Positions 11,947 through 36,505 of a stretch of DNA of 64,000 nucleotides are shown here, one piece after another (position 1 is the first letter of the stretch; each line of letters opens with the position of its first letter). A program made the position numbers and the translations under genes. The stretch lies in assembly GCA_023920165.1 (NCBI GenBank), contig CP089275.1, positions 5,208,001 through 5,272,000 of the forward strand, in the 5' to 3' direction. Below the pieces are notes generated by a model. The model had not been told where the DNA came from. It did not search any database and saw only the letters and a program-made list of their open reading frames with translations. Origin of the DNA: Curvularia clavata. Its lineage: Eukaryota.

Positions 11947-13411
11947 TGCGGCAAGTGGACGACGCAGATTGGAAGACCTAGATCTGATTCAATAGGTTTT
12001 GCTTCGTTCGTGTAACCCTCTTTGCAGTGTTTGATGGAATAGTATGAGCGCGATTGAGAAAGACGAGAGTGCAGCCTTGCGAATGATTAAGTTCAAAAGA
12101 CAACAGACTATCAGCACAGAAATAGGGCTAAGAGGTTGCGTTATTTTGAAGGAGCCATTAGTCACTCTCCAATGTTTAACCGCCCCTCGGGTGACTTCAT
12201 ACACTATACAACCTCCATGCTTATCTGGTTGGATTTCGGTTGGTGAACGCTACGCGGGTCACTTTAGGCGCCATTTTCGGAAAAAGAGTTATGCTTTGAT
12301 TCATAGCCTTTGGCTACGCTTATTTCATGAACACTCGCCGTTTAGCCGGGGTGCTAGCGGCCGCATAGAAAGTTGACAGTCAGGGTGTGCGACTGCTGAG
12401 GGGTTGCGGAAGAAGTTACGCGGGATGGGTTCCGCCACAAACTACGTACGTAAGCACATGTGAGTAGGCCGGCATGAGATTCTTGCTGGTCGTCATTTCC
12501 AGCAGCCGTCCAACTGTCTTAATCATATGCTTCTCTTAGTTAATTTTCTATCTACGATGACAATATATTCATCTAAAAAAGATCGACGGCTTCCTGGCGC
12601 GCGATATCCAAGCCTTTGGAACTTGAGTCTAGCGAGGTTGTTCAGAGGCTACGTACAATTTTTGATTCTTTTTCAGAAACATCTGCAAGACGATTCCAGC
12701 GGATTTGCATAGCCTTGAAGGTCGCACAATGTTTCCTTTTAATGCCGTGACAAATGCAAACTTTAACCCTGGGGCTTCCTGTCCTTCATAACTGTCGCAA
12801 AACCTCTCCAGCCGACTTGGGCTTGAATATGCGATATATTGAAGGCGCGGTTCCATATCTTCGGTAACGCTCCCTGTACATTCACGACTAGCTTCACATC
12901 CAATAGAGCAAGATACACTCGCCTGCACAATCGGTTTCCGGTATCAAACTCCGCACCTTTTTTTCACAAAAGGGGATCAGCATCGCTTAGCGGTACTTGG
13001 GTATACTTTGTACACATAAGATCAACTCGAGGCGCCTAGCTCTTACTAGTGTCTGCAATATAATACTCCTCAACCGCTGGAAAGCTCACAAGGTCTATGT
13101 CGACGAGGGTTGGCCATCCTCCTTGCTAGAGTCATCTAGGTGTTCGTCTCTTCAGTTTGATGTATTGCAAAATCGCCTTCGGATAATCCCACATGTCAGC
13201 CTTGCGGCGCCACACTGTGGGCTGTGCAACCGCCCACCCTTTGAATTAGCGTACAGCATCTCAGCTGTTCTTGGCCTGAGCGCCGCACTACTCCTAACAA
13301 CCACTCACTTGTGGTCATACCTAGTTTCATAATCCCTCTCAATATCCAAGTAGGGGCTATTGCATCAAGCTTTACTACGCTCTGCCGCTTTCCTGCTTAG
13401 ATTGGACCACC

Positions 13412-16449: not shown

Positions 16450-17339
16450 TATATGTATTGAATGGCAACTAGTATTGGTATTATAGATAAGAAGAGTATA
16501 GATATAAAAGCTCGGCTAAGTGTGTAATAAATCTAAGGCATACGAGCATCTTTATCAACGTAGTTTACTATTGTATGCATATTTGTTCTCTCTTTTTCAT
16601 AGAAGGCTGGTGATAACTATGAGTATTCTACCTAGGCAATTTGCCACTGCGAAGCAGGGAAGGCGGTCGACCCGCACCGGCACAGACCTTTTGCGCTTTC
16701 TAGAGATAGAAAACAGTAGGAGCTAGGCGCGCAGTGTAGATATCGGGAGCCGATTCTGCAAGCGAGTGTATCAGTGAGAGGCGATAGGGCGTGCAAAACG
16801 GCAATGATTCTGCTCGCCCACTTCGGCAACTTCAGCGAATGGTTCTAATTTGCGGACGCTACCGCGCGCAAGCCGTTCGTTCTCCACATTAGTCTGGCCG
16901 GAGGTGGGTCAAGCTCGGGCGCCGCTACTATGATGCTGACTCGTCGACCAATACAAGGGTCCAGGAAGCCCCACGAGCTCAACCCGCCATGCGATGAAGC
17001 GCTTCGCTGTCCTTTGCATGTCGCCGCCCTCAAATTATCCCAGAAGACAAAGGACACACAGCACGTTTTGTTGTGTTAGAGAAGGAGAATCAAGCGATAC
17101 TTCACGGTAGACGATGCATCCCAAGACCCAGGACCGGCTGCCGAGACGGCTCGAGAGAACTATCAGGTCACTTTGCTCCACTATCACCACCGTTGACGGC
17201 CCCCACCTTCCGTCTTAGCATCCAGAGTACCGAACTAAGACGAGACTTTCCTGGCGCTGTAATCCGAAATCTCTCAGATAAAGTCGGTACCGCCTTCTTC
17301 CTTGGACTTGCGCAAGTTAATCGCATCCACCCCACAGCA

Positions 17340-18650
17340 ATGTCCAAATCTGCGCTCGTATTTGGTGCTTCTGGCGTAACAGGTCTGTGAAGGCACTGCC
17401 TAGATCTCGCAGAAATACTAACATGCACATTACGATACAGGATGGGCCTTTGTCAATGAAATACTCACCGACTATCCCGCAAAGGGTGTTTGGAAGCGTG
17501 TCCACGCACTCTCCAACCGCCCTATCACCTTATCTCAGGCACAATGGCCAGAAGATCCCCGTTTAAACATGGTCCCGGGTATCGACTTGCTCGCCCATAG
17601 CCAAGAAAGCCTCGAGAAAGAGATGAGTCAAAGGATTCCTGATATCGCCGACGTGACACATGTATACTATGTCGCATACAAAGCAGGCTTGGATGTAAAG
17701 AAAGAGATGGATGAAGCGCTTGAAATGTTCTCAAAGGCTGTGGAAGCTGTTGATAAGCTCTGCCCGGCTTTGGAGTTCATCGTATTACAGATTGGAACTA
17801 AGATATGTTCGTCTTCACCTTCAATTACTTTATGTGGCATAAACTTACTATAGTAGATGGCGTCCACCTTCTCGCCGTCCTCCCATGGTACGATGAAGCT
17901 GCAGCACCTGGTACTACGGCACCTTCTCTCCCTCCAGCTCCACGATCCGAGTCCGAACCGCGCATACCAAGCCCGTTTGCTGAAATGTTGTTCTACCACT
18001 CGCAAATAGACTTCATTACCGAATACGCCAAAGACAAGAGCTGGAGCTTCATTGAGACTCGGCCTGACATAATTGTCGGCTTTGTACCAAATCAAAATTT
18101 CTACTCACTGGGTACATCCTTGGGAATTTTCCTAAGTCTGTGGAAAGAGGTCCACGGAGAAGGGGCCAAATGCCCATTTCCTGGTACAGCCAAAACCTGG
18201 AAAGCTTTGAGTAGTGACAGCAGCAGCGACATGATTGCACGCCAAACGATACATCTCACTCTTTCCCCCTCTACCCCCAAGGGCGCTGCCTACAATGTCT
18301 CAGATTCCAAAACGCCGCAAAATTGGGAAACAAAGTGGCCAGTCGTCTGTTCCTACTTCAACCTCGAGGCCACAGAGCCCCTTTCCGAACCCTTCGACAT
18401 GCGCAAATTCATCAATGATAACATGGACACGTGGTTGGCTATGGAGAAGAAATACGGGCTGCAGAGCGGACATGCTGATGGTGGTCGAGGAATGCAGATA
18501 TCTGAGCATTTGCTAATGACAAGGTTCGATTTTGACAGGCAGCTGGATATGACTAAGTTGTATAGCACGGGGTTCACAGAAGAGAGAGGACCGAAAGAGA
18601 CATGGTGGAAGGTATTTGATAGAATGCGCAAGGCGAAAATCATTCCCTGA
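17340..18650 (+). CDS. PRISE-like (progesterone 5-beta-reductase/iridoid synthase; SirQ-like) extended SDR
   Basis: ALVFGASGVTGW, VTHVYYVAY, LQIGTKIYG (across intron ~17807-17857), FYHSQ, TRPDIIVGFVP, C-terminal MRKAKIIP. Confidence 0.82.
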
Positions 18651-18869: not shown

Positions 18870-20458
18870 TTAGAACGTCATGTTAATCATGATAGTTTTC
18901 GGTTCCGTGAATGCCCTGAGCGCATGGATACCGCACTCCCTACCCAGCCCACTCTCCTTGCTTCCTCCAAATGGCGTGTTCATGAACATCAAGCTCACGC
19001 AGTTAATACCTACCATGCCACTATCAAACTCACTCGCCACTCGCAACGCCCTGTTGATATCTGTTGTAAACACGCCCGCCATGAGTCCGAAATTGGTGTT
19101 GTTAGACAGCGCCATAACCTCCTCTTCCGTCTTAAACGACTTGACGACTGAAACGGGGCCAAAGATCTCTTCGCAATGGAGCTCGGACTTGGGATCTACA
19201 TCTGTAAAGACGGTAGGCTCAATGTAGTATCCCGATGTGCCGACGCGTTTACCGCCCACGGCGAGGGTACCATGACCATTTTGCTGACCACGCTCGATGA
19301 AGCCTTGGACACGGTTGAACTGCGCTTGGTCGACGAGAGGGCCGATGTTCGTTGCCGTCTCATCTGGATCACCGATTTCCTTCACCTTCTCTTTCATGGC
19401 CGCTTTATACTTCTCAAGGAAAGCGTCATAGATGCCCTCTTGGACGTAGACACGACTGGCAGCGAAGCATACCTGTCCCGTATTGGCTGTGATGGCATCG
19501 GCTGTCCATTTCACTGCATTATCTAGATTTGCATCGTCAAAGACGACGGCAGGAGACTTGCCACCGAGCTCAAGAGTGACACGTTTCAGATTTGATTTCG
19601 CAGCCATTTCTTGGATCTTCTTGCCAGTAGAAATAGAGCCAGTGAAACTGACTTTGCGGATGCGCATGTGGCTTGCGATGAGAGCACCTGTGCTTCCGTC
19701 TCCGGAAAGGACTTGGAAGACACCGGGAGGAAAGCCGGCTTCCTTGATGAGGGTTCCGAGAGCGAGAGCCGAGAAAGGTGTCTTTTCAGACGGCTTGAGT
19801 ATGAAGCAGTTTCCTGTTGCGAGAGCTGGTGCGGCTTTCAACCCCATTGTTCCCATTGGGCCATTCCAGGGTACTATGCCAGCCACCGTGCCTAATGGCT
19901 CGTTGCTATATTGTTGTTAGTCTATGGGAGTCGTTTAGTTACCGGGAGATTAGGAGGTTCATCATACCGCACGATCTTGAGAAAGCCATCTTCTTGGGGC
20001 CATGACTCACCACCAAACTTATCGATGAAGCCAGCATTGTACCTAAATGCCTATTGCAAGTCAGAATTCGATCTAGAACCTAAGAAAAGCAAGACTGGAA
20101 AACAACACACCTCGGCACATAGCCCGACCTCGAAGGCGCCAAACGCTGCTGGCGCACCCAAAGACACTCTCGACAATTGTGCAAGCTCATTTGCGTTTTT
20201 GTCAACCAGTTCCGCGAATCGATTCATAATGCCCCGCCGCTGCGCGGAGCTCATCTTTTTCCATGCGGGAAATGCCTTCTCTGCAGCATCTACAGCGGCA
20301 TCGACATCTTGTTCGCCCGCTAATGGCACGTCGTCCGCGATGAGTTCACCATTCTTGGGGTTGTATAATGTAAGCTTCTTGGGTGATTTAGATTCTACGT
20401 ATTCGTTGTTGATGAAAAGCTGCTTGGGAAGGTTTTTGATTGAATACTGAAACGTCAT
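18870..20458 (-). CDS. NAD(P)+-dependent aldehyde dehydrogenase
   Basis: IVPWN, KPSEKTP, FTGS, TLELGGKS, GQVCFA (catalytic Cys), EEIFGPV, PFGGSKESG; two introns ~19909-20108. Confidence 0.95.
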
Positions 20459-21293
20459 ATTGGGCGAGCCACTGTCGGAAGCGAGTTATGTGAAGGACAA
20501 AGTGTTTCAGGGAAGAGCATATTAGCACAATTTATCGGCTTTGGATGTGGATCCCCCATTTTTGAATCGGGATATAGGATATGTACGAGTAGCCTTACCT
20601 ACATGCAAATGTAGTTAGTCTCACTCCTGTCAGCATAAAGCCTACCGATGGCCAGTCACAGCCGAGTAAACACATCGTAATGGTGTGTGACACGGCGTGT
20701 GGAGATGCGCCCTTGGTAACGACATGACGGGTGAAAAGTCGTTCCGGATGATGTGAGACGTTCCCGCGGTTTGTTTTCCGCTGTCGTAGCGACATGAAAT
20801 CACGAGTCATCTCCTCCACCTTCCCCGCACGTTACCGTGTCATGTTACAAGCACCATGCATGAGACTGATACATGCCGAAGCCGCTGAATAAATGAATCG
20901 AACCAATCGTAGAGTCATGCTTAGGCTTCGAGTTGAGAAAGTTCGGGGTTAGAAAGCAACTGTGTCAGTTAGTTTGGGTAGCACAAAGGACATTAACTGC
21001 CCATGACTTGAGAGTAGCTGAGTGCAACAAATCGCCGACGCGGCTTGAAAATGGGCATTTTTGGGCTTCACAGTGCTATTGAAATGGAAGCGGAAGAGAG
21101 TTTCCTCACAGCGATGCGGAGAAAGAATCCAAACTACAAAGATATCTTGGTGATTTTCCAAGAACTTATAGCAGACCGACCTCTCTCCGTATTTTGAAGA
21201 TACTGGCAGGATTGCAATTTTGAGACTATTCAGATATCTCAAGACTTTTATGTCAGTGTTCACAGCTTATTCCAAGATAATAAATTTCTGAGA

Positions 21294-22187
21294 ATGCCTC
21301 GCAAAGTCGCGTTGATTACTGGAGGCGGCTCCGGAATCGGCCTGGCAGTCGCAAAGACTTTGTCACAACGCTCTAGTATCGATTGGACTGTTCACATAGT
21401 CGATTTGAATAAAGAAGCAGGCACAAAAGCAACGTGTGGTCTTCAGAACGCTCATTTTCATCAAGCCGATGTCGGGGACTATTCTTCTCTTGCTTCCACC
21501 TTCGAGGCAGCCTACAACGATGCCGGACGCTTAGATTTTGTTTTCGCAAATGCCGGCATTGTAGAGAGGGATAACTTCTACGCCAAGCATGATTTGAGTG
21601 GCCCACCGCCTCCGCCTCCAAACCAGTTGAGCATCGATCTCAACTACAAAGCCGTGGTCGACACGTCATATCTTGCATTGCATTATTTTCGCAAGGGAAA
21701 GGCGAAACAAGAAAATGAGGAATTGGACCCCGTTTTGGTCATGACGTCCTCGTGTGGAGGCCTGTATCCGAGCGAATTCTGTCCTATGTATAGTGGAAGC
21801 AAGGCTGCTGTTATCCATTTCAATCGCGCAATCACCGTGGCATATCATCACGAAGGCATTCGAACATTTGCCGTATGCCCTGGCATGATCCGAACCGCAT
21901 TGCTGTCTCAAGAGGAATGGCAGTCCTTCGCCCCTGAGCATTTCACTCCAGTGGAGACAGTTTCAGATACTGTCGTGAAATTGGTTGAAGGTGGGGAAAT
22001 GAAAGATGCAAAAGGTGTAACGAAAAGCAAGTATGAGAACTGGGGGTTGACTGTTGAAGTTAACGGGCGGAACTTTTACTTCAGAACTGGCCCGGAGTTC
22101 TGTGACGATGATATGAAGAATATGATGGCAAATACTAGCATGGCCAAGCAGTTGGCAAGGATCGAGGGAGCTTCCAATGGAGCTTAA
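21294..22187 (+). CDS. Short-chain dehydrogenase/reductase (15-hydroxyprostaglandin dehydrogenase-like)
   Basis: TGGGSGIG, acidic residue in IVDLN (NAD preference), FANAG, YSGSK, VCPG; intronless. Confidence 0.9.
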   Translation: MPRKVALITGGGSGIGLAVAKTLSQRSSIDWTVHIVDLNKEAGTKATCGLQNAHFHQADVGDYSSLASTFEAAYNDAGRLDFVFANAGIVERDNFYAKHDLSGPPPPPPNQLSIDLNYKAVVDTSYLALHYFRKGKAKQENEELDPVLVMTSSCGGLYPSEFCPMYSGSKAAVIHFNRAITVAYHHEGIRTFAVCPGMIRTALLSQEEWQSFAPEHFTPVETVSDTVVKLVEGGEMKDAKGVTKSKYENWGLTVEVNGRNFYFRTGPEFCDDDMKNMMANTSMAKQLARIEGASNGA

Positions 22188-22224
22188 GTGGTAGACAGGT
22201 GCGCCTGAATTTGATTTGAACTTT

Positions 22225-23171
22225 CTATATCTTTGAATGCCGCCCGCTTGCAAGTCTCATCCCACCGTCTACAGCAATATCTTCGCCATTGATGTACGCT
22301 GCTGCAGGACTACATAAGAACACCATGACGCCGGCGATGTCGGAGGGTTCTCCAAGTCGCTTCCTGGGGTTGCTCTGCTCTAACTCTTCCTGTCCCCCTA
22401 ATATATCAATGAGGCCATTAGCAAGTTTGGAAGGAAAGAAGCCAGGTGCAACAGTGTTTGTAGTAATGTTCCTGGGTCCAAGCTCAACAGCTAATTGTCG
22501 CGACAGATGGTGTGCGGCTGCCTTAGAAACGCTATACATGATCGTTCCGTGCTCGCCAACATGAGGTACTGTCGTCCCAGCGGTGGAAGATACAATGATT
22601 ATACGAGAAGGGGAAATGCGAGTACCAGCGCGCTCGAGAAGAGGTGTGAAGCTGATTTCTATTAGTAGTCGCATCGCGGTTTTCGCTTGTCAATGCACAT
22701 ACAGTCTCGCAAGATTGAACACGCCACGGACATTCAAGTCTAAAACCTTCTGGCTCGACCAATCTGGTGTTGGATCGAATGGACCACCCCAAGTGGCTCC
22801 AGCGTTACATACAAGGATATCTAACTTGTCATCGGTCTCCTGCACTTTCTTCACTAATCTTTCGATATCCTTTGTATCTGCGACATTGGCGGCGATACCG
22901 ACCGCAGTACCAGATACAGGCAATTTGTTGAGCGTTTCGACCGCTTGGTCGATACCTTGCTCTCCTTCATTTTTGCGTGCAGAGATAAAAACTTTTTTTG
23001 CGCCTGCGAGGAGGAAGGCAGTCGCCGCATGTAGTCCGAGTCCCCGGGAGCCTAATAAATTGAATTAAATTTACTCTTGGTTGTGATCTATCAATGAGTC
23101 TCACCTCCTGTTACCAAAGCGACCTTGCCGTCGAGCCTGAACATGCGGTCAAAGTCTTTCAATTCGGACAT
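22225..23171 (-). CDS. Short-chain dehydrogenase/reductase (RhlG/3-oxoacyl reductase-like) with PTS1-like C-terminus SKI
   Basis: MSELKDFDRMFRLDGKVALVTGG/SRGLG (spliced), CNAGATWG, YSVSK, APGFFPSK, VDGG; ends RHSKI*. Confidence 0.9.
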
Positions 23172-23274
23172 TGTAATCCTCCCTTAGCCTAAGCAAATCT
23201 AGAGAAGATGACGAAGATAAAACCAGCGGCGTCCCATCTCTAGGAGCAAGATGCCTAGCGAAAATAGGCTGCAT

Positions 23275-23310
23275 CCGAGGAGCTCGGTATATGGAGTATG
23301 ATACCCTCGG
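23275..23310. promoter_or_regulatory. Two FarA/FarB (CTF1)-type CCTCGG elements in the SDR / acyl-CoA ligase divergent promoter
   Basis: CCGAGG at 23275-23280 and CCTCGG at 23305-23310 in a ~350-bp intergenic region between two PTS1-bearing genes. Confidence 0.5.
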
Positions 23311-23517
23311 GAACACGCAGCGGTCTGTGCACTTCCGGGGTTCCCGCATATCGTCTATCGTGGGGTTGCTACCTATTGCAGCCAAACAATACCCACTCAA
23401 TTCAACGTTAGTTCTCCAATACGCATACTGAGTCTTTGGTACTAGATTGTTGCTTTACAAGATTCCAATCAGCCCTCCCAACCAGTTCACTTGACTGAGA
23501 GTTCGCATCCACCAAAC

Positions 23518-25319
23518 ATGCCTTTCTCGTCCCCTTTCCCCGCATTGAACATCCCAAAATGCAACCTGATGGATTATCTTTTTCCACCAGGAAAGACACC
23601 ATCTAATATTCCGATTTGGATTGATTCAAAAAATACAGAACGATACCTGACGTCACAATCGTTACTGCAATGGACAAAGAGATTGGCGCTGGGCTTAGAT
23701 CGTATGGGTAGCAAGCCGGGAAGTGTGGTATTAATCTTTACTCCCAACCACGTCTTTGTTCCAGTCGCATACCTTGGGGTGGTGGGATCCAAGCGTATAT
23801 TCAGTGGCTGTAATCCAGCGTACACGCTCTCAGGTATGTATTTGCTGGCAGACATACAACGTGACACGCTAACAGTCTCAAGAAATGGTGCATCAGGTTA
23901 CGAACACTGAAGCCCAGATCATACTTGCACATCCCAGTCTCATAAAAGTTGCAGTGGCGGCAGCGAAGGGCGCCGGTTTACCAGAAGGTAGAGTCTTTCT
24001 TTTCTCCGACGAGCCGTGTGCTCCAGCCGAAGGCTGCAAAGACTGGAGAGAATTTCTTCCTTCACCAGCCGAAGCAAAGCACTACGAGTTTCCAAGGTTA
24101 TCGGAATATGAAGCAACTACAACAACAGCAACAGTTAACTATTCTTCGGGTACTACTGGACTGCCAAAGGGTGTCGAGGTGAGCCATTATAACTTGATTG
24201 CGAATGTGGAGCAAACAATCTTCGTCCGGTACGCGAAAAAGCCTTGGAATGCCGATACACGACCTGAGGAGAGATGGGTTTCCTTCTTACCTTTGTATCA
24301 CGCCTATGGTCAGCTCTATACCATGTCCATTGCGCAAAAGCTCCAGATCCCATGTTACATCATGCAGAAGTTTGAGTACACCGAGTTTCTGCGGGTTATC
24401 CAAGACCACAAGATAACACACCTACAAGTTGCGCCTCCCATTATGGTCATGTTGAGTAAGAGGCCGGAAACTGCAAAATATGATCTCAGCAGCGTCACGG
24501 ATATCTTGTGCGGTGCAGCGCCGCTATCGAAAGAGCTTCAGAATGAGATAACTAGGAAACTAGGGTGCGAGATCATCCAGGGCTGGGGTATGACTGAGGT
24601 CACTTGTGGTGGCTTGCTTGTGCCTGGAGGCACAGTGGATGAGTAAGAATGACTTCGAAGACATTTTGATCGCGACTAACAACCGGTAGTTCAGGTAGTG
24701 CGGGCCAATTGCAGCCAAACTGCGAAAGCAAACTTCTTGATGATGATGGCAAAGAAGTACCAGAAGGTGAGCCAGGTGAGCTCTATATTCGTGGACCAAA
24801 CGTCTTTTTGCGGTACTGGCGCAACCCTGAAGCAACAAAAGAATCCTTGTCGCCCGATGGTTGGTTGAAGACTGGTGACATTGCCATTGTGAAGAATGGA
24901 TGGTTCTGGATCGTGGATCGTAAAAAGGTAACGACAACCCCCAAAAAGCATCAATACAAGTGCTAACACGTTTACAGGAACTTATTAAAGTAAATGCGTT
25001 GCAGGTCGCACCTGCGGAGCTTGAGGCTGTGCTACTTCAGTTTGATCCCATTGCAGATGCAGCCGCAGTAGGCATCACTATTGATGGACAAGAATGGCCC
25101 CGCGCTTATGTGGCACTCAAAGAAGAATACAAGGGCAAGACGACCGCGGAAGATATTCACAAACACATGAAAATGAAGGTCGCGAAGCACAAGCAACTGG
25201 TGGGTGGCATTGTATTCGTAGATGAAGTGCCGAAGTTGCCATCGGGGAAGATTGTGAGAAAACTTGTTAAGCAATGGGCTCAGAGAGACGCAGAAAAGAT
25301 GAGCAAAGCCAGGCTATAG
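23518..25319 (+). CDS. 4-coumarate-CoA ligase-like acyl-CoA synthetase with PTS1 (ARL)
   Basis: YSSGTTGLPKG, LPLYHAYG, QGWGMTE, WLKTGD, DRKKELIK, PKLPSGK; three introns; ends KARL*. Confidence 0.93.
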
Positions 25320-25594
25320 TTCCTTCGTGGTTATCAATTACTTCCTGTAGCCGACTCCTCTATAAGGTCAATTCAATATCTTGTTTTGCTCTCATGCCAG
25401 AAGCGTACGACATGAGGTGAAAGAGAAGTCTAAGAAAGGCCCGGAATAAAACAATTGTTGAATGGAAACAAAACCGGACCTGCTTTTATAAGACATAACG
25501 ATATTCTGCTCAATATAACTAGAGACTAAGGCTTTGGGCTCAGCAATCGTCCCAACGCATGCTTCTATGTATAATTGCCGACCTTCGTTAGCAT

Positions 25595-26754
25595 TCAAAA
25601 CACGACAACTTGTCTCTTTTCCGCCTTGCCATTCTTCATATCTTCTATCATCTCCGGCAAGTCTTCCAATTTGCGATACTCGACTTCAGGCTGAATGCTA
25701 TGCTTTCCCGTAAATTCGACCGCTTTCTTCATCCTCTGTGGGATACTTGTACTCTCAGCCTTAATTCGGTACCGACCCGTTGTCAAATCAAATGCAGTGA
25801 TAAAATCGAAGCCTTTAGACGCGATTCCAACTACCATGAGCAAACCCCCTGTGCGTAGCAGGTCAGGTGCGCCAGCGTACGCCACGTTTGAACCAGAATA
25901 CACGGCGGCTGCATGGCATCCCTTACCGTCAGTGAGTTTCTTAATGTCTTCGATGTAGTTTGGATCCGTCTTGGAGTTGAAGGTCGCATCCGCGCCGAGT
26001 TTTCTGGCCATTGAAAGTTGAGAGTCGTTTATGTCGAGAGCGATGGTTTTGATGCCCATCTATTACAATCAGATCAATATCCTGCATCTTGCTCTCGCTA
26101 AAAGAATGTAAAAGAAGGAAATTTACAAGATTAGGAGACAAGAACATACCGCTTTGGAATACTGGATAGCATATTGACCCAGTCCCCCACAACCCACAAC
26201 TGCCAACCACATACCTGGTTCTAGCTCACACCCGTCCACACTATGAAACGCAGTAATGCCAGCGCAGAAAAGCGGCGCTGCCCTTTCCATATCGAGAGTC
26301 TCTGGAATCTTGACCGCACTCATCCAGTCTACAACTGCATACTCAGCGAAGAAACCGTCCGATACGAACCCTTGCAACTTCTGGTTCCCCGTCTCGCAGC
26401 GCAAATTATGCACTTGGCAGCCGGAACAGGTGTAACAGCACCCAGTGAAGTAGTTGAAGCCGATTGCATCGCCGATTGCGAATCCATGACCTGAAGCCTC
26501 CGAGCCAAAAGATTCAATATGTCCGACACCTTCGTGGCCAAGGGTTACGGTGTAGTCTGGGCGCAGGCTCATCCCAAGATCGGAATGGCATAACGATGCA
26601 GAGTGAATCTTGACCAAGAACTGATATGGTGCTGGTGTTGGTTTGGGTACATCATTGATGACAACCTTTTGTTTTTTGCTGAAATGTATGTGAGCAACCG
26701 CAGGACTAGTTTGGGTAAGTGATGAACTCACGGATCCCACTGGCCAGCCTTCAT
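25595..26754 (-). CDS. Zinc-dependent medium-chain alcohol dehydrogenase
   Basis: MKAGQWDP first exon; LCHSD, LGHEG, structural Zn CYTCSGC..C, APLFCAG, GCGGLG; two introns. Confidence 0.92.
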
Positions 26755-27013
26755 GTTTACGGTCTGCTTGCCAGTGTTTTGATGGCCGGATGCAACCTGT
26801 TTCTAGTGCTGATATGATGTATCTTCTTGATGCTCACGTATAAGTAAGAAGGTTATGTTCTTTAGTAGACACAACTAACGAACACAGTCGCCAATCAGGA
26901 GAGGGCATATGAACGATACTGCGAGTCATCTCTGCACTTCGGCACGCCACTCACTGACATTGATATGCATAGCCTGACCAAGCGGAAAGACAAGCCCGAT
27001 ATGACCGCTTATT

Positions 27014-27060
27014 GGGGGGTTGGCCGGGCGTGCGGGGAAGGTAGGAAGCGGGGTGTGGGG
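27014..27060 (+). promoter_or_regulatory. G-run cluster with three CreA-type SYGGRG sites upstream of the alcohol dehydrogenase
   Basis: GCGGGG 27032-27037, GCGGGG 27048-27053, GTGGGG 27055-27060; five G-runs in 47 bp. Confidence 0.45.
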
Positions 27061-27287
27061 TACAAATATCATATTCATGTTACAGTTTCTGGTCAAACTA
27101 TACTTGGCGATAGGCGAGCAATACTCTATACGAGGACTAGTAGCGCATTCTCCAGATCCTTGATGTATACACCTGAATACGAACGCACTCTTTTTAATAA
27201 GCTAAACTCCATTAGTTATGCATGGAAGTAAACACATAGCATAGAAACATTTGCATCCATGCTGCTGTCAATCAAAAGGACTAGCAC

Positions 27288-28406
27288 CTAAGATAGTATG
27301 AAATCCAACCCATTTGCCATCTTCTCGAAGAATTCCTTCCTTGGCTGGTCTAACTTCGATGACGGCCAACCCATAAAGAAGTGTGGATAGCCTTCGAACA
27401 TGTCAAACCGATTGGATACACTGCAACCCGATCAGCAAATTAGTTGAAAAGAAAGGCAACAAGCTTACCCTGCTTCATCGAGCTTCTCCTTCATGAGTAA
27501 AGCATCATCTCTAAGGGTATCGTGGCTTGCCGCGACCATATATACCCGTTTCAAGTCTTTAGTTCTTGGATGCAAAAGTGGCGAGGCGTAATGATCGGTT
27601 GGCGACGCACCGAAGGCATCTGATAGGGAGTCAGTATGCCAAAATCCTGCAAACAAGCTGTCAACCTACCCCAAAAAGCTCGCATTGCTCCTGCCGTGTT
27701 GAGCGTATTCTGGTCGTGTTCCTCCATCGCAGTATATCTGGCCTTCATCTCGTCTGGTACCGCATCCGGATGCACCGTTGGTGGCATAATGCTGAGAATG
27801 CCCACAACTTGGTCACCGAGCCCCTCATCTATAGCCCTCAGCGCGGTTCCAAATGCAATGTGCCCACCGGCAGAGACGCCTGAAGTTATGAATCTGCTTC
27901 CAGCGGTTTTCAGTCGCTGGGAATTATTCAAGGCCCATTTCAAAGCCTCGTAGCATTCGTTCATCAATCCCGGATGCGCGTTTTGGGGTGCAAGTCCGTA
28001 TTCAACGGAGATGACCACAATGTTGCCAGCTTTTGAAATGGCTCTGCTGAAACCGTCGTCCGCATTGATATCACCCATAGCCCAGCCTCCACCATGATAG
28101 TACATGCACACTGGCCTGTCGCCATTGTAGTCAACAGGAGTGTATATACGGACTTTGGTTCCTTTGTCCGTTGTCGTATCTTCTGTTTCAACAGAAGAGT
28201 CAGGCGCTGGGAGGTCGTATTTGGATACCAGCAATTCACCAATATGCGCGAATTGTTGGAGCATGTTTGAGACGGGCGGTGTTAGAGCCATGCGCCCTCC
28301 CCATTCCTCTTCGAACTACATACGTTCGTTACTATAGGTTGTACTTTTTGGTACTCTCTATACGAACCTCTAGCCATGGCTTCGCAAGCTCGTTGTTTGT
28401 CATCAT
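27288..28406 (-). CDS. Alpha/beta-hydrolase, HSL-family esterase/lactonase
   Basis: HGGGW oxyanion motif, GVSAGG nucleophile elbow, HDTLRDD, GYPHFF; three introns; start MMTNNELAKPWLE. Confidence 0.9.
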
Positions 28407-28837
28407 TCACCGATGTTGATTGTTCTGATATAGTGCAACTGGTAGATCATCATGACCCTTCTTTACAAAATGCAATGAACCTGCTCCGCACGCCGAATGC
28501 CATTAGCGTCACTACCACGTACGTGCGTAGTACAACTTTTCCCCGCTGCGACGTGTAAGGAGTAGGTTGGACTCCACCCCCGCTCTTCTTCTCCACGCGT
28601 AACTAACTCCGACATTTGCGGCCCGATTTCAACCCCCCAAAACAAGCCTCGGCTCTAGATCATGCACACCGCTAGCGCATCTTCCGACCCGTGTGCTATG
28701 TGTAGGAGTAACGAGTCATGAGCAGTATCTTCCTCCATGGCTTCCGATTCATGTGGTCTAACAGCATCTACCCACATGTTTTGCAGCGTATGCTTGTGTC
28801 GTAAACCACACTCAGATCCCTTTCAAACACCCCAACC

Positions 28838-30263
28838 ATGGACATAGACGTAAATAGCCACCCAGCGTTCTCTCGCATACCACCATGGGTGAAAGCCAAG
28901 CTGCGCCCTATCGCAATTTCCAAGATACACCAAGTCTACGAATGGGTTGAGAACGAATGCATACCGGCGGAGCGCATATACAAAGCCCAGCTCAAAGGAA
29001 GCGAGACGAGATGGAACACACCAGCCATAATCCATGAACTACGGAAAAAGGCCAAAGCTCAAGGGCTATGGAATTTGTTTCTTCCCAACCACTTCGTCGA
29101 GAGTCCTGGTTTGACGAACCTGGAATATTCGTGTTGTGCAGAGATAATGGGGAGAGTATATTGGGCAGCACAGGTGAATCAACCCTTCTGAACTTCCAGT
29201 CGCCATCTTGAAAGTGCGATATTGATGCAACAAATAGACCATGAACTGCCACGCCCCAGAAACGGGGAACATTGAACTCCTGGCAAAATACTGTACACAG
29301 TCGCAGAAGGAAAGATGGCTTTATCCCTTGATGAACGGCGACATGTCCTCCGCATACAGCATGACCGAGCCTAACGTCGCGTCTTCCGATGCGACTCAAG
29401 TTGGCATCAAAATGGAAATTACGGATAAAGAAGTCATCATCAACGGCCGCAAGCTCTACGGCAACTGCCAGTACAATCCCGAGATGCAACTGTTCATACT
29501 AATGGGGTGCTCTGACCCGACGAACCCGAACCCCTGGAACAGACACACAACGCTTGTGGTGCCAGCCAACAGTCCTGGGCTTCGGCAAATCAGAAACCTG
29601 AGTATAATGGGGTACGACTGGGCGCCTGAGGGACACGGGGAATATGTCTACGAGAACGTGCGCGTGCCGATTGAAAACATCATTCTGGGACCAGGTCGCG
29701 CGTTTGAAATCGCTCAAGGGAGACTGGGACCTGGTCGCATACATCATTGCATGCGGCTAATCGGGCAGGCAGAGCGCGCATTCGAACTCGCGCTTGTGCG
29801 GTGCATGGAGCCGAGGAAGAAGCCACGAGGCAAGTTCATCGGCGAGTTTGATAGCAACATCGAGAGAATTGCTGATATGCGCATGACAATCGATGCAATG
29901 CGACTTGTTGTTCTGAATGCGGCCGATACTATGGATTTGCAGGGTAACAAGGCTGGTAAATATGCGATTGCGCAGAGTAAAATCATGGTACCGAATGCGC
30001 TGCTCAAAGTAATCGATGAAGCCATGCAAATGTATGGCGGCCAGGGATTGACTCAGCATACGCCTTTGCCTGAGATATGGACGTATGCGCGTTTTGTGAG
30101 GGTGGCGGATGGACCTGACTCCGCACATAGACACCAGGTCGGGCGTGATCAGATGAAGACGGCGCAGGGATTCAGGGATAAGGCAAAGGGGTATACGGAG
30201 AGGTACAGAGAATTGTGCAAGAAGTGGGGATTGGAGCCGGAAGAATTCGAGGGAATATTGTAG
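28838..30263 (+). CDS. Acyl-CoA dehydrogenase, ACAD10/ACAD11 (LvaC)-like
   Basis: GLWNLFLP, GLTNLEY, NCHAPETGN, MTEPNVASSDA, AFEIAQGRLGPGRIHHCMR, RVADGPD; one intron ~29173-29237. Confidence 0.9.
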
Positions 30264-30497
30264 CAAATATTTCTTCTAGACCACATCCACTTGAACGGCC
30301 ACATAGATGCTGTGCACGTTACGTGAGGAGAGATACAGAAGGCGTTAAAGCGATGCAATAATACATTAACTAATTCTCTTACATTCATCAAAAGGAAAAA
30401 AAGGGTATCATATCCAACCTACAGAATGCTAGCTCATGTTGGTATCATCTAAGGAGCATACATGGCCCAAATTCATTATTCATAATGCAACCGATGG

Positions 30498-32423
30498 TTA
30501 TCCAAAGCTTAAATTGTCGTCATCGTCAAAAAAGGCTGCCGCGTCTTGTGTCGACATGAGAAAGTCACTAAACGAGGTATTTCTCGCTTTAAAAGACGCT
30601 GTTTCTAGAGAGAAGCTTGTGCGAGGAGTAGCTATACACGGTCTCTTCGTGGGCGGTGCGTGAACCCGGGGTGGTGCTACGGTAGCTTTCCGTTTTGCCT
30701 GAGGTTCAAACATTGATTTCGGTAGCTGTGAGGGCCTCAGCTTGGAAAGTTCAATCTCAAGTCCGGTCGCAAAAGGACCTGGGTTTTTACATTTGCCAGC
30801 TATCTTCTTAGTAGAAGACAGTGGCCTGCTGCTATTTGCAACTATAGATGAGCGTGCTGGTATGTTCGCTGAGGTTCCTTGCGTTTGTCGAGAGGCCAAC
30901 TTCTCCGGGATTGGTGTTGACGATTTCTTCGGCGTGACAATCGCTGGATGTGAGTTTGTCTGACCACTGGCAGTGTCATCGGGATCATCGTCCAGATCAT
31001 CAAGGGAGAAGTCTAGGTCTTGGGTACAAATCGGAGGTAGGTCATCATTCGTGGAAGTTGCTCCCAAAATACTGATGGTTTCGGAGATTTGGGGTTTTGC
31101 ATCGCAGTAGATTTCGCGCGAAATTTGTGTACTGCTTTCAAAGAAGTCGTCCCAACAATCGCTGGCGAGTGAAGATATGGGTTGCAGTCTTTTTCCAGCA
31201 GATGCGGTGTTCAAAGTAACAGGCGAGCCGCAATTCGATGCCGGGAGTCCGGGAAGCTTGAATCCTGGGTATACGGTTGCTGGAGACTTTGTCTGCGGAA
31301 CTGGTGGTACCGGCTTTCTAAGTGATACTGTAGGTGGCATTCGGCTTTGCGTAGATGACGACGGTTGGACTTGTATAAGATCAAGTGCTATACAGATCGG
31401 GAACTGCGTCCGTTCATATGGGTGCTGGTTTCTATACTTGGCCTGAAACGGCACTCGGCGAAGAGTTGTCTGAGTGCCCCTGAGCGGCCCATCTAGGATC
31501 AGACATTCCAACTGATCATTTTCTAGTCGCAAAATCTGAAGATGATGGTTTTTTGATAGTCTGTTGCTTGTGTTCAAATCCTTGAGGAGAGTGACAACAC
31601 AGCCAACTTTTATACGCAGGCGGTGGGGTGGTAGCCCGACAGGATTGAGTTTGTGCAACAACCCTACAGCAGGATTCCATTCCAGAATCGTCGACGAGGC
31701 ATCTTGGGATAGCAGCTCTATTATAGGCCCAGGCAGTTTGTCTAGTGCCGCCTCAACTGACTTGTTTATGGGTCCGTGAGTGCGGGTAAACTCGAGGTTT
31801 TCTCTGGCAAGATCGGATTTTGGCGGGTTTGGTGGAAGAGGCTGAGCCAGTGGAGTATAGGAGGTGGGTGCTGGTTGCGGTCGTGGATTCGGAACACACT
31901 CTTCAGCTGTTTTCAACACCATCATGTCGTGAATCTCTAACAGAGACTCATCGTCAACGTCATCGTCCACCCAATCTTCCGGAGAGGCTTTCTGCTCGGT
32001 GTTGTCATTGTTATCATTGTTATACGGTTCGCTCTCAATAGCGGCGATTGTCTCTTCCAGAAGTCTATCCAACTCTGTTTCTTTGTTTCGTTTCTCTTCA
32101 TCCTTTTTCTTCTTGATCCCCAAAAACGCCTCCATCCCGTTTTTGAGTTGTGCCTGGGTATGGCTGTATCCAATCAGCTGTGTGGCCAGTCCGACCCCCA
32201 GTTGCTTCCTTGCTGCAGCCTCCTTCGTTTCTTTTTCTTTGCGCCTCTTGGCTGCAGCTTTACGCCGCTCCTCAGCCTCCCGTGCCTGGGCGGCGCGCTG
32301 GTTCAACTCGAGTTCTCGCGCCAACTGCTTCCGCTGACGCTCACTGACAAGTCCCCCATTTTTCTTATACTGTTTTTTGAGTTCCGTCGATGTTTGCGCG
32401 ATTCTGTGCGGCGTTGGCGCCAT
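30498..32423 (-). CDS. Hypothetical protein: charged coiled-coil N-terminus, isolated Pif1/Helitron helicase 2B-like domain, S/P/T-rich C-terminus
   Basis: Long intronless ORF; segment GLPPHRLRIKVG..LLKDLN..ILDG..RTQFPI at ~31690-31385; no Walker motifs seen. Confidence 0.75.
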   Translation of the reverse strand: MAPTPHRIAQTSTELKKQYKKNGGLVSERQRKQLARELELNQRAAQAREAEERRKAAAKRRKEKETKEAAARKQLGVGLATQLIGYSHTQAQLKNGMEAFLGIKKKKDEEKRNKETELDRLLEETIAAIESEPYNNDNNDNTEQKASPEDWVDDDVDDESLLEIHDMMVLKTAEECVPNPRPQPAPTSYTPLAQPLPPNPPKSDLARENLEFTRTHGPINKSVEAALDKLPGPIIELLSQDASSTILEWNPAVGLLHKLNPVGLPPHRLRIKVGCVVTLLKDLNTSNRLSKNHHLQILRLENDQLECLILDGPLRGTQTTLRRVPFQAKYRNQHPYERTQFPICIALDLIQVQPSSSTQSRMPPTVSLRKPVPPVPQTKSPATVYPGFKLPGLPASNCGSPVTLNTASAGKRLQPISSLASDCWDDFFESSTQISREIYCDAKPQISETISILGATSTNDDLPPICTQDLDFSLDDLDDDPDDTASGQTNSHPAIVTPKKSSTPIPEKLASRQTQGTSANIPARSSIVANSSRPLSSTKKIAGKCKNPGPFATGLEIELSKLRPSQLPKSMFEPQAKRKATVAPPRVHAPPTKRPCIATPRTSFSLETASFKARNTSFSDFLMSTQDAAAFFDDDDNLSFG

Positions 32424-33108
32424 GGTGGTTGTACATGACGTGGATGAGGCGGGGGTGTGGGATCCTGGAAAGTGGCGACGCATGTTTTGCATAGCCACGC
32501 TAGAGACGCGAAGTCACGTGCTCGCACACTAGTCTTTGTGTTTACTGTCGCCTACATCCAAGTGTCGGCTCACAGAGCTGGCCACCCTCGCCGACTCGTC
32601 AAATGTCTCCAGCTCAACAGGTTACCGAGACCGAAGCCGGTGGAGCGGTTTCCTGACACGGTGCTGACACCGTTAAGCGCCATTGCGGTACCACTTCGGA
32701 GCATGGTTGATACAGCCACCTTCGATTGATCCTGTCCATCACATACTTGCACACATACACTTCCGCTGCGATGATTTTGGTCCGTATGCGTTGGGCGGAC
32801 AAACAGTACACATGTTGCATATTCAACTCGATCAGGCGGCCGTTTGTGGGGAAAAGCACAGCCGGCTCTCCATAGAACACACTTACCCCGCACACAAGCC
32901 GCGCTTGTAGTATATTGGTATCACTCGATTAGGTGAAGGTGCATACATCCAAAGAAATCCTTATATCGTGACTTACGTGATGCCATTTCTAGCTTTTGGG
33001 CGCGATTCATAGTGAAGAAAGTCAGTGATGCTGATTGCATGTATTCCTGCTGAGATATAATCCTTCAACGAAAGCGCATGGCAGACCACTCATACCAATA
33101 ACACCACA

Positions 33109-33960
33109 ATGTCGTTCGCGTTAAAGGGAGTTGCATATATCACTGGCGCGAGTTCAGGTAAGCTAGGAGGTCGTATCACTTATACTGATAATGCTCACAA
33201 CTAACGTTACACAGGTATCGGACAGCACACTGCTTATGCTCTTGCAAGGCAGGGCGTACGCTCACTCGCTTTAGTCGACCGGAACCCATTATCGATGACA
33301 ATAAGCGAATTAAAGAAGATATCGCCTGAGATTTCTATCAAGACATTTGAGCTAGATGTTACCGACGAAAAGGCAGTTGATGATAGTATAGAAAAGACGG
33401 CCAAAGAGTTCGGAAGACTGGACTACGCAGTCAACAATGCGGGAATTGGTGGTATGATCAAAACATCGGACCAAATACCAAAGACCGATTTCGAGAAGAT
33501 TATAGCTGTTAATACAACAGCAGTCTGGCAATGTCAGCGTGCCCAGATTCGACAAATGCTGAGACAGGAAAAATTATCAGACTCGTATCGCTCCTCCCGT
33601 GGATCCATCGTCAATGTTGCCTCCATGTATGGTGTGGTTGCACCGCCGCCCAATGTTCCAGCTACTGCATACGCTACAAGCAAACATGCCGTTGTTGGCC
33701 TTACTAAATCCGATGCGCTTGCATTCGCCCACAAAGGCATCAGGATTAATTCTATTTCTCCTGGTTATGTGTTGACGCCATTGGTCGCGGAAACGATGTC
33801 CGAAGGTGACATGATGGAGAAGGAGAGAATGAAAATTCCAGTTCATCGCTATTCGGAGATGGAAGAGATCGCCGACTGCATAGCATTCTTGCATTCGAAT
33901 GCGGCTAGTTACATGATTGGGGCGAACTTGGTTGCAGATGGCGGATACACAATCACATAG
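33109..33960 (+). CDS. Short-chain dehydrogenase/reductase
   Basis: ITGASS/GIG across intron ~33158-33214, NNAG, YATSK, ISPG, ADGG. Confidence 0.92.
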
Positions 33961-34554
33961 AATGTGGCACAAATGTAGTCATAGACCTTTTAGGATGTGC
34001 ATATTACATCGTTCTTTGCATACACATGCCCCCTGATTTCTGCGCCGATAATGTCTTCTAAAGTCGGGATCATCCCAGACGGAAGTATTGTCTTGGTCCC
34101 AAATGTTTAACCCCACGTTATTCGGGAAATAAAACTCGACGTCACACTCCGGCAAATGTTTAAGACAAGTTGTTTAGAATTCACATGACTCGCCAGCTGG
34201 CTACTGATCTGACCCGGAGGGGCCATTTTTAGGCTGTGTCATGAATCTCTGACCGCGGAAATCGTTTACCACTACTATCGCTGCAAGGGGTCCCTTACAT
34301 GTTCTTCAATATGAGTGGCTAGCACAGTCCGTTACCCCGAATTTGTACATGTCACCAGCATTTCTTCGATTGACTAATCTGACTCATTAATCTTACACAG
34401 TCAATATAAACTGACTCGAATCAAACAGGAAGGTAAGAAGTTTAAGATGCTAAGGCGTAAAAAACGACCTTAAGAAGATGTCCGCCCCTGATCACACTGT
34501 TGGCCACCTCATTTCTCTTTGAATCTCTTTGCATATTTTCATATTGTTCATACG

Positions 34555-36505
34555 ATGGCAGACGGATTCGTGGTTCCATCACAAGCAAACCCACAAGGTG
34601 ACGCTCGACACTGGCTAGAAAGGCCCATTCATGCAGAGCGCCATGTTCGTATCATTTGCGTCGGTGCAGGCGCCTCGGGTCTTCTCATGGCATACAAACT
34701 CCAGAGACATTTCTCCAACTACACTCTTCAAATTTACGAAAAGAATGCTGAGGTGTCTGGCACTTGGTTTGAAAACCGATATCCGGGGTAAGTGGAGGCC
34801 AAGATGCTAAATGCGGGGGATGATACGAGTCTAGCCTCGCTATCAGACTTTACCGACCCTGCCACATCAATACGCCACAATTACTAATTAATTTGCAGAT
34901 GCGCGTGCGATGTTCCTTCCCATAACTATACCTGGTCGTTTGAGCCGAAGCTCGACTGGTCGGCTGTCTACGCTAGTTCCAAAGAGATATTCGCATACTT
35001 CAATAACTTTGCGCGAAAGTACGATCTGCATCAATATGTCAAGACTCGACACCAAGTCATCGGTGCAGAGTGGGACAAGCAAAAGGGCGGTTACCATGTA
35101 AAGGTCAAAGACCTGGAGACTGGTCAGAGCACGGAGGACCATTGTGACATTTTGATAAACGCTTCTGGTATTCTTAATAATTGGCAATGGCCCGCCATAC
35201 CTGGTCTGGACAAATACAAAGGTACATTACTACACACGGCGAACTGGAATGACAACATCGACCTGGCCGGTCGCAATGTTGGTCTTATTGGAAATGGGTC
35301 AGTGCTCTTCCCTCTTAATTCTCAGTGTATACTAACACCGACTTAGTTCTTCTGGTATCCAAGTTCTTCCCGCAATCCAACCATACGTACAGAAAGTAAC
35401 TACCTTCATCCGCGAACCAACATGGGTCTCTCCTGTTCAAGGTCTAGAGCAACACGTCTTTTCCGAAAACGAAAAGCAAACTTTCGCTATGGAGCCTGGT
35501 GCACTGCTCCAATATCGCAAGGACATTGAGCGAGGTCTTAACGGCCAATTCAGCACGTTCCTGAAAAACACCACCACCAACATCGAAACTGAAGCCTACT
35601 TCCGCCAGCAAATGTCCGAAAAACTGAAAAACCCATATCTCGAACAGCGTCTGGTCCCGAATTGGCGTGTCGGCTGTAGAAGGCTAACGCCCGGTGTGGG
35701 TTACCTCGAAGCCCTTGGCAAGCCAAACGTACAGACAGTATATGGCGAGATCAACGAGATCACTGAGCGCGGTTGTCTCTGTGATGACGGGAATGAATAC
35801 CCCGTCGATGTACTCATCTGCGCTACAGGCTTCAACACATCTTTCAAGCCGCGCTTCCCTGTGATTAACTCGTCTGGAGCCAACCTCCAGGATGCCTGGG
35901 CCAAAGAACCCCGCTCCTACTTTGGCCTTGCCGCTCCCGACTTCCCTAACTACCTCATTTTCCTCGGTCCCAACTGTCCCATCGGCAACGGACCTGTGCT
36001 CAGTGGTATTGAAGCTCAGGCTGATTACATGTGCAAACTCATCGACCGCTTCCAAACGCACAATATTTCTTCTTTCGCGCCTAAGACAGAAGCTGTAGAC
36101 GATTTCATCGCGTTCAAGGACGCTTTCATGAAGAAAACCGTGTGGGACGAGCCTTGTCGGTCGTGGTACAAGGGTCTTGGCCCTGATGGTCCTGTCACCG
36201 CTCTTTGGCCTGGCTCAACGCTGCACTATATCGAGGCATTGATGGAGTTGAGACTAGAAGACTGGGATGTGAAGTACAACGGTAATCGTTTCAATTGGCT
36301 TGGTAATGGATACTCGCAGACAGAGGTAGATCCGACGTCTGATTGGGCGTTCTACATAAGAGACGAAGATGATGACGAGCCGATTTCGCGATTGAAGAAG
36401 CTGCGAATCATCAATAAGAGTGGAACGATGAAGCCTAGTGCTGGGGTCAGTTTTACGGGAGTACCAGTGGAGGTCGATGACGCAGCACCAGAGGCGAAGT
36501 TATGA
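34555..36505 (+). CDS. Baeyer-Villiger / flavin-containing monooxygenase 2 with PTS1 (AKL)
   Basis: GAGASG, GTWFENRYPG/CACD, fingerprint YKGTLLHTANW, GNG/SSG, GCRR, ATGF; two introns; ends EAKL*. Confidence 0.93.

Follow-up and report, generated by a model that had tools for sequence, protein, structure and literature searches.

The stretch analysed here, 64,000 nucleotides of Curvularia clavata contig CP089275.1 (positions 5,208,001 to 5,272,000; hereafter the window, with its own numbering), carries a gene cluster in whose promoters an eight-base word, CGA(G/T)TCAT, recurs. From left to right, the cluster begins with a gene for a Zn2Cys6 transcription factor (TF; 5578..8544, minus strand), which has a Fungal_trans domain and a zinc cluster that aligns with those of Ppr1, Leu3 and Gal4, followed by BVMO1, encoding a Baeyer-Villiger-type monooxygenase (9950..11946, minus, 3′ end approximate), the main exon of which is 76–88% identical in six orthologous loci. 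Then come a PRISE-family ene-reductase (17340..18650, plus), an aldehyde dehydrogenase (ALDH; 18870..20458, minus) and SDR1, which is 15-hydroxyprostaglandin-dehydrogenase-like (21294..22187, plus). SDR2 (minus) and the acyl-CoA ligase 4CL (plus) are divergent (22225..25319) and both have PTS1-like C-termini. They are followed by a zinc alcohol dehydrogenase (ADH; 25595..26752, minus), an esterase of the alpha/beta hydrolase type (27300..28410, minus), an acyl-CoA dehydrogenase (ACAD; 28838..30263, plus), SDR3 (33109..33960, plus) and BVMO2, with a PTS1-like C-terminus (34555..36505, plus). Pfam agrees with the labels given in the preliminary description to the genes near the copies of the word, with matches for PRISE, ALDH, ADH, esterase, ACAD, SDR3 and BVMO2; the BVMO2 match comes from an earlier exon, the large exon having none. 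Spliced transcripts of the esterase, ACAD and SDR3 genes were seen when contigs of four RNA runs were compared over 26700–34600.

A scan of the whole window returned all eight exact copies of the word listed previously, at 20220, 20803, 26922, 28712, 28745 and 33003 on the plus strand and at 20893 and 34185 as the reverse complement, and no others in the 64 kb; the copy at 20220 lies within the ALDH gene. The same scan recovered the one-mismatch copies reported at 12297, 16936, 20911, 34241 and 34411. The rate of one copy per 16 kb, calculated for even base composition, does not describe this genome (G000), in which 1622 copies in 32.36 Mb correspond to one per 20 kb. The concentration in promoter DNA is as described: nine intergenic regions totalling 7.2 kb hold seven copies where 0.36 would be expected (nominal p 1e-7), and the word ranks first. 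It had been conceded that the word was chosen post hoc, and this matters, as the best comparable word equalled it in 36 of 400 Markov simulations (20 of 400 if at least five regions were required) and, in a cruder shuffle control, did as well in 14 of 40. Because the word was picked after looking, its enrichment in the window alone is borderline, with a corrected p of 0.05–0.09.

That the motif is real follows from its conservation in orthologous promoters, not from its enrichment in the window. A metagenome scan with SDR1 gave 11 orthologous loci (L001–L011), which by similarity are Alternaria-like, Pyrenophora-like, Phaeosphaeriaceae-like and Massarineae-like. The cluster is conserved across Pleosporales: the SDR1-SDR2-4CL-BVMO1-TF linkage is kept in six distinct loci, ALDH adjoins in six, and the TF gene is linked to BVMO1-4CL-SDR2-SDR1 in 6/6 distinct loci long enough to show linkage. 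ADH, PRISE or esterase genes lie close by in three distinct orthologous loci, and near-consecutive accessions in Bipolaris, Pyrenophora and Alternaria agree with the linkage. In the window, the TF and BVMO1 genes are moved and inverted relative to their orthologues. An EthD-domain gene and a TRI12-like MFS transporter gene are found near ADH and PRISE at L003:2686-5616, L004:2156-5295 and L011:1-2300 (Pfam on L003 and L004) and were not seen in the window's own cluster.

Conservation in orthologous promoters had been proposed as a check, and the exact word is present in 6/7 of the ALDH/SDR1 promoters counted, with about 0.06 expected in each, while CGAKTCAK is present in 7/7. This count leaves out L005 (three differences from L004), L008 and L009 (less than 300 bp upstream) and L010 (partial, with no exact copy), and intragenic exact matches (L001:7508, L004:8888, L007:11891, L008:471 and L011:17920) were not counted. 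The orthologous promoters have few 10-mers in common (1–16 of 826), and several of the copies have shifted place or strand; that copies have moved or flipped in promoters so little alike therefore indicates selection on the word itself. Only 165 of 19274 control words were conserved as well as the motif, the others all stemming from three blocks, and of those 165 the motif is the only one with five further copies spread over four other promoters of the window (0.43 expected, p 8.5e-5, or 0.014 after multiplying by 165). This recurrence is independent support, because the orthologue data were not available when the word was first nominated. The repeated word is a real conserved cis-element, judged by its footprint common to several cluster promoters and not cluster-wide.

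The fuller consensus is an AP-1-like pseudo-palindrome, YGA-N-TCR, with a single centre base. The form TGACTCG occurs six times in window promoters and nine times in orthologues, and the full nine-base site of the Magnaporthe bZIP protein BIP1, discussed below, is found at 28712 and 34184 and once in orthologues. A centre A or T is also seen: TGAATCG and the C/G form alternate at one aligned position, and the two are paired upstream of a BIP2-like gene elsewhere in the genome. The TF-gene promoter, whose site was overlooked in the preliminary description, contains an aligned block A-Y-GA-N-TC-R in 7/7 loci, with five invariant columns; in the window it is CGAGTCG (9308..9314, plus), with a partner TGAGTCA (9341..9347, plus) 33 bp away. 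The variant upstream of BVMO1 (12297..12304, plus) aligns with TGAGTCG in L003, L004 and L011 (3/6), and is not kept at that column in L001, L007 and L009. Upstream of PRISE is CGAGTCAG (16936..16943, minus), a variant that occurs in a BIP1-bound probe; TGACTCG is present in 3/3 PRISE promoters, at positions that are not clearly homologous. In the divergent ALDH/SDR1 promoter, the main copy (20803..20810, plus) has a homologous copy in L001, L002, L006 and L007 and a relocated one in L001, L003, L004 and L011. It is followed by two CreA-like SYGGRG sites and a degenerate partner 33 bp from 20803 (20814..20843, plus), a module found also in L001, L002 and L006. The exact copy at 20893 and the one-mismatch copy at 20911 (20893..20918) do form the inverted pair described earlier, with 10 bp between them; as an arrangement it is not kept in orthologues, L001 and L002 having a AGAGTCAT copy at a similar distance to 20893. 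The exact copy upstream of ADH (26922..26929, plus) is not conserved in three orthologues. Two exact copies 33 bp apart lie between the esterase and ACAD genes (28712..28752, plus), the first being the full BIP1 9-mer, and a lone exact copy (33003..33010, plus) precedes SDR3 by 106 bp, in a region common to SDR3 and the intervening gene. The BVMO2 promoter (34184..34423) has the full BIP1 9-mer at 34184, the variant at 34241, a pair 32 bp apart at 34380 and 34412, and an overlapping site at 34417.

The element might be real only at ALDH/SDR1 and in the TF and BVMO1 promoters, with the copies at ADH, esterase/ACAD, SDR3 and BVMO2 due to chance and the cluster not extended by the motif. The corrected p given above is in keeping with this, as are the ADH copy, exact in 0/3 orthologues, and the single SDR3 copy, in a region that belongs also to another gene. 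Orthologues of ACAD, SDR3 and BVMO2 were not found in the 11 loci; for SDR3 and BVMO2, none lay within 10 kb of SDR1, most of these loci being too short to tell. Such a reading is nevertheless unlikely given the five exact copies outside ALDH/SDR1 (the recurrence test above, with the word nominated by footprinting), the 32–33 bp pair at both esterase/ACAD and BVMO2, and the retention of the ADH-esterase-ACAD order on a contig about 81% identical. It had been proposed that the motif ties SDR3 and BVMO2 to the cluster; this is plausible, for this genome alone, and stronger for BVMO2 (five sites, including one pair) than for SDR3 (one exact site).

The sites tend to be paired. Among 22 YGA-N-TCR pairs within 150 bp, six are spaced by 31–33 bp, in five promoter kinds (p 5e-5, allowing for any 3-bp window). 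The window contributes three (9308/9341, 28712/28745 and 34380/34412) and the orthologues the other three, which on their own give p 0.0015. In the ALDH/SDR1 module, degenerate 33-bp partners are likewise retained, and the CreA-like sites lie between the two. Two bZIP dimers at this spacing would lie three helical turns apart and would occupy the same face of the DNA. Across the genome, 31–33 bp pairs number 113 (3/113 in the cluster), compared with 87 in a reversed control and about 72 predicted from the sample rate, an excess too small to interpret. A genome-wide search for close pairs gave 15 matches at 14 loci, two of them in the cluster; the remaining 12 are close to the number of about 10 expected by chance. 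At one other locus (G000:C5:1453344; L018:4945-4994), two exact copies of CGAGTCAT, 42 bp apart, precede a different Zn2Cys6 gene by about 700 bp, and a Gfo/Idh/MocA oxidoreductase gene is nearby.

The word is probably, on its sequence, the binding site of a BIP1/BIP2-family bZIP dimer. The preliminary description had left the binder between the cluster Zn2Cys6 factor and a bZIP factor. The bZIP option is favoured, because the reverse complement of the consensus is CATGACTCG, the BIP1 site defined by electrophoretic mobility shift assay, and two BIP-family genes are present in the genome; the Zn2Cys6 option fares less well, given the Ppr1/Gal4-like geometry of that factor and CGG elements that are at least as conserved. 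In the parts of the Magnaporthe study accessible here, BIP1 binds TGACTC, extended to CATGACTCG, the site is called GCN4-like, and mutation of BIP1 sites abolishes expression of an ACE1-cluster gene (PMC10833574). Four BIP1-bound probes contain CGAGTCAT twice, CGAGTCAG and CGAGTCAA (PMC10833574), and all of these forms also occur in the present cluster promoters. TGACTCG is found in 10–16% of Bip1-activated genes, according to the portion available of a preprint (bioRxiv 10.64898/2026.09.11.750954). The Magnaporthe study, in the parts accessible, places BIP1 and BIP2 clades across Pezizomycotina, remarks that Pfam missed the bZIP domain of BIP1, and describes BIP2 (MGG_08587) as a bZIP protein with IPR021833/DUF3425, stated there to be unstudied (PMC10833574, S4 Table). 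A PnAda1 preprint reports targets without a bZIP motif, and a fungal motif-learning preprint makes no mention of the word.

A DUF3425 search of G000 found a BIP2-like gene on contig C7 (C7:2299863-2300258), which encodes a BIP basic region and DUF3425. Through it a paralogue was reached on contig C4 (C4:3210888-3211199), which is BIP1-like, having the BIP basic region without DUF3425, and is conserved across Dothideomycetes. Relatives of the C4 gene include Sordariomycete proteins whose start and zipper peptides are those that the BIP1 primers imply, and in a tree the C4 gene groups with these proteins (support 85/74). One of them, the BIP1-like P0541, shares 57% identity over the bZIP with the C4 gene and 47% with the C7 gene. 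Both G000 proteins have Asp where Pap1 has the conserved Asn of the basic region. In the Gcn4 structure, this Asn reads the outer T, and Asp in its place would favour C, giving tolerance of C instead of the AP-1 T. The BIP2-like gene, which was chosen by family and not by presence of the word, has four TGAMTCG sites in 1.5 kb upstream (0.27 expected), among them the full 9-mer with a TGAATCG at a distance of 32 bp; one of ten other bZIP upstream regions (317–800 bp each) had a single site. The four sites suggest self- or cross-regulation of this gene. Its upstream region (L080) also contains two blocks similar to GGGCCCC(A/G)C, a sequence that is described below for the TF gene.

Several observations weigh against a BIP-family element serving the cluster. 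The enrichment found in the cluster promoters (7 against 0.36 expected) does not extend to the genome as a whole, where the exact word (1622 against 1718–1795 expected, with no rise outside open reading frames) and the 9-mer (259 against 277–324) are not enriched, and the other close-pair loci (n = 12) lie in or beside unrelated genes. In orthologues, the word is outside the top 25 cross-gene words and occurs in its exact form in 0/8 SDR2/4CL, 0/3 EthD and 0/3 MFS promoters; of the three ADH orthologues lacking the exact copy, two have TGAGTCAT elsewhere. One-mismatch partners at 31–33 bp (11, with 5.6 expected) are no commoner than at several other offsets. The T-centre form CGATTCAT makes up half of the exact copies and is absent from the published BIP1 probes, to the extent that these were available. 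Orthology to BIP1 is indirect, through primer-implied peptides, with moderate tree support, and a single weak site lies in the roughly 5 kb upstream of the BIP1-like C4 gene. The cluster is also kept in fungi not known as leaf pathogens, whereas BIP1 of Magnaporthe is appressorium-specific.

The Gcn4/CpcA/AP-1 consensus is TGA(C/G)TCA, and CpcA/Cpc1 (the Gcn4 orthologue) or another AP-1-like bZIP could in principle bind the copies as imperfect TGASTCA. The present element shares with that consensus the seven-base pseudo-palindrome and single centre base, and differs in having C over T at one end, in tolerating an A/T centre and in showing no enrichment of TGASTCA. There are five TGAGTCA among 65 YGA-N-TCR sites, including those at 9341 and 34380 and in two ADH orthologue promoters, but this is a chance number (4.3 expected), while CGAKTCA accounts for 25 of the 65 against 8.3 expected. 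The excess of the one with the other at chance indicates that selection keeps the C, and since TGASTCA is in 0/8 of the ALDH/SDR1 promoters counted, a CpcA-type binder is quite improbable. A Bas1/Myb-type reader of GAGTCA was rejected because the centre base varies.

A binder encoded within the cluster would be the Zn2Cys6 factor itself, reading the word as an extended single half-site (CGA for CGG) or as a pair, and autoregulating through 9308. Conservation of the site before its own gene, aligned in 7/7, suggests autoregulation, and the concentration of the word in the cluster without genome-wide enrichment is what a pathway-specific regulon would show. All 93 parseable homologues (93/93) have Arg where Ppr1 and Gal4 carry the second Lys of the recognition pair, so that specificity could differ, and homologues of TF and SDR1 are on equal-size contigs in 20/22 named species common to both lists (counted by eye). 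Among the linked genes, the word is present in the promoters of TF, ALDH/SDR1, PRISE and partly BVMO1, and absent from SDR2/4CL, EthD and MFS; SDR2/4CL, the most constant neighbours of the TF gene, are thus without it. Ppr1/Gal4-type factors read two triplets 6–11 bp apart. The linker and coil geometry of the cluster factor is Ppr1/Gal4-like, unlike what a 7-bp pseudo-palindrome with C/T-swapping ends would call for, and the YGA-N-TCR consensus, with its one centre base, does not fit two CGG-like triplets at a fixed 6–11 bp spacing. With suitable CGG elements conserved in the same promoters, and the word equal to a proven bZIP site, recognition of the word by the Zn2Cys6 factor is rather unlikely.

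These CGG elements were not remarked on in the preliminary description. A CGG-N8-CCG inverted repeat (from 20767, in the block 20766..20781) forms the best-conserved 16–22 bp block of the ALDH/SDR1 promoter, is perfect in 6/9 examined, and is the best candidate site for a Zn2Cys6 dimer. A CGG-N10-CCG element lies upstream of ADH (26983..26998), where the CGGAAAR half is kept in 4/4, and CGGAAAA is conserved in 7/8 ALDH/SDR1, 6/7 BVMO1 and 3/4 ADH promoters. It appears more likely that the cluster Zn2Cys6 factor uses these conserved CGG elements rather than the word. A gapped-dyad search over all the promoters found no single dyad common across genes. The closest paralogue of the factor (27% identity; G000:C4:86000-95900, L031) is beside genes for a flavin monooxygenase, an SDR and an MFS transporter, and the exact word is not in their promoters.

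The copies might also act in RNA, as upstream start or stop codons in 5′ leaders, and not as DNA sites. One ACAD RNA contig starts at 28609, covering 28712 and 28745, another contig spans 34054–34345, and the paired sites upstream of the BIP2-like gene supply an ATG followed by an in-frame TGA 33 nt later. This is highly improbable, however, as sites occur on both strands relative to the genes, many lack an ATG, many lie 300–800 bp upstream, and the ACAD contig of a second run starts at 28830.

Other regulatory inputs are predicted from conserved consensus matches. The BVMO1 promoter has a conserved block (12175..12190, minus) of CGGTTAAA (7/7) and CCGAGG (6/7), of which CGGTTAAA is XlnR/AraR-like (CGGNTAAW) by consensus and CCGAGG is FarA-like. 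The SDR2/4CL promoter, without the motif, has an invariant CCTCGG, the FarA/B consensus, in 8/8 promoters (23305 in the window), and SYGGRG sites (the CreA consensus) are conserved in cluster promoters. These exact matches to FarA/FarB (CCTCGG), CreA (SYGGRG) and XlnR/AraR (CGGNTAAW) elements are separate from YGA-N-TCR and are assigned by consensus only. Before the TF gene, a GGGCCCC(A/G)C block with CreA-like halves (8782–8800) is present in 7/7 loci.

The enzyme families predict an order of SDR oxidation, PRISE reduction, Baeyer-Villiger oxygen insertion, ester hydrolysis, oxidation by ADH and ALDH, CoA activation and peroxisomal beta-oxidation. The chain would run from a secondary alcohol or enone through ketone, ester or lactone, hydroxy acid and acid to a CoA thioester. 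The families make a plant-derived cyclic or unsaturated ketone the most likely substrate, and by analogy the chain would fit the logic of cyclic-ketone and monoterpene breakdown. The C-terminus of SDR2 (22228–22236) is SKI in the window and SKL in 8/8 orthologues, and the peroxisomal signal of SDR2 may be weaker in this fungus. No published description of the cluster was found in literature searches, subscription papers and preprint supplements being out of reach. Other genes of the window include a NACHT-ankyrin gene between BVMO1 and PRISE (13412–16449), which the orthologous loci lack and in which an in-frame stop (15352–15354) separates the NACHT from the ankyrin part, and the intervening gene between ACAD and SDR3 (30498–32423), which is transcribed, has only a weak Pif1 2B-domain match (E 2e-4) and no motif link, and resembles a stretch on another contig of the same RNA runs. 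A two-exon nicotianamine-synthase-like gene (PF03059; 992–2004) and a HeLo-NACHT (NLR-like) gene (56680–60141) are also present.

Original work on Grosmannia clavigera is said to describe an enzyme set similar to that of the present cluster. In a later account, as far as it was accessible, the monoterpene-utilisation genes of that fungus include two BVMOs, which serve in limonene handling and are listed as peroxisomal; judged by enzyme families, the present cluster may likewise use BVMOs to break down plant terpenoids, and PRISE, EthD and a promoter motif are not mentioned in the accessible part (PMC8120277). With the BIP1 (MGG_08118) regulon of Magnaporthe oryzae, as far as the available portions of its sources go, the cluster shares the word CATGACTCG/TGACTCG; the Magnaporthe sites lie in a bidirectional promoter of the ACE1 cluster, whose zinc-finger TF gene (BC2) also depends on BIP1, and an ALDH, an SDR and two alpha/beta hydrolases are among the genes that need BIP1 (PMC10833574; bioRxiv 10.64898/2026.09.11.750954). 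In contrast to the biosynthetic ACE1 cluster, the present one is catabolic and conserved across Pleosporales. Its footprint places no restriction on the centre base and allows either C or T at each end, and its pairs are spaced by 31–33 bp, compared with 12 bp in the Magnaporthe ORF3/RAP2 probe; BC2 promoter probes were unbound by BIP1, yet the TF gene of the present cluster has a conserved upstream site (PMC10833574, in the part available). The C7 gene resembles BIP2 in its BIP basic region and DUF3425, and differs in the four upstream sites, the accessible part of the same study reporting neither a function nor a site for BIP2 (PMC10833574).

The word itself is already known. The new findings are that a catabolic cluster of another fungal class conserves it, that its consensus is wider, that sites pair at 31–33 bp and that the BIP2-like gene has such sites upstream. 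In the mechanism proposed, the likeliest of those considered, the best site form within YGA-N-TCR would be ATGA(C/A)TCG, and a BIP1/BIP2-family bZIP would bind the copies and activate ALDH/SDR1, PRISE, BVMO1, esterase/ACAD, BVMO2 and the cluster Zn2Cys6 gene, in a conserved and partly peroxisomal cluster for ketone or enone degradation. It would be one input of several, beside CreA-like sites for glucose repression, FarA-like sites for peroxisomal genes, and CGG elements that probably serve the cluster Zn2Cys6 factor. A more specific and tentative proposal, of low probability, is that the BIP2-like bZIP, alone or with the BIP1-like protein, is a self-regulating switch acting on YGA-N-TCR sites paired at three helical turns, turning on a plant ketone/enone-degrading peroxisomal pathway across Pleosporales.

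In the literature found, the BIP1 site has so far been shown only in Magnaporthe, where BIP1 is essential for rice blast infection and appressorium-specific (PMC10833574, as far as accessible). The footprint across several Pleosporales families widens the consensus and adds a spacing rule and a concrete target cluster for BIP factors in a second fungal class. The make-up of the cluster suggests that it serves to consume a plant ketone, under three or four regulatory inputs that can be told apart. If the BIP2-like switch were true, the BIP clade would have an older metabolic or detoxifying role beside its appressorium biology, the paired sites would be a cooperative site grammar new to the BIP literature found, and the cluster would gain its first function.

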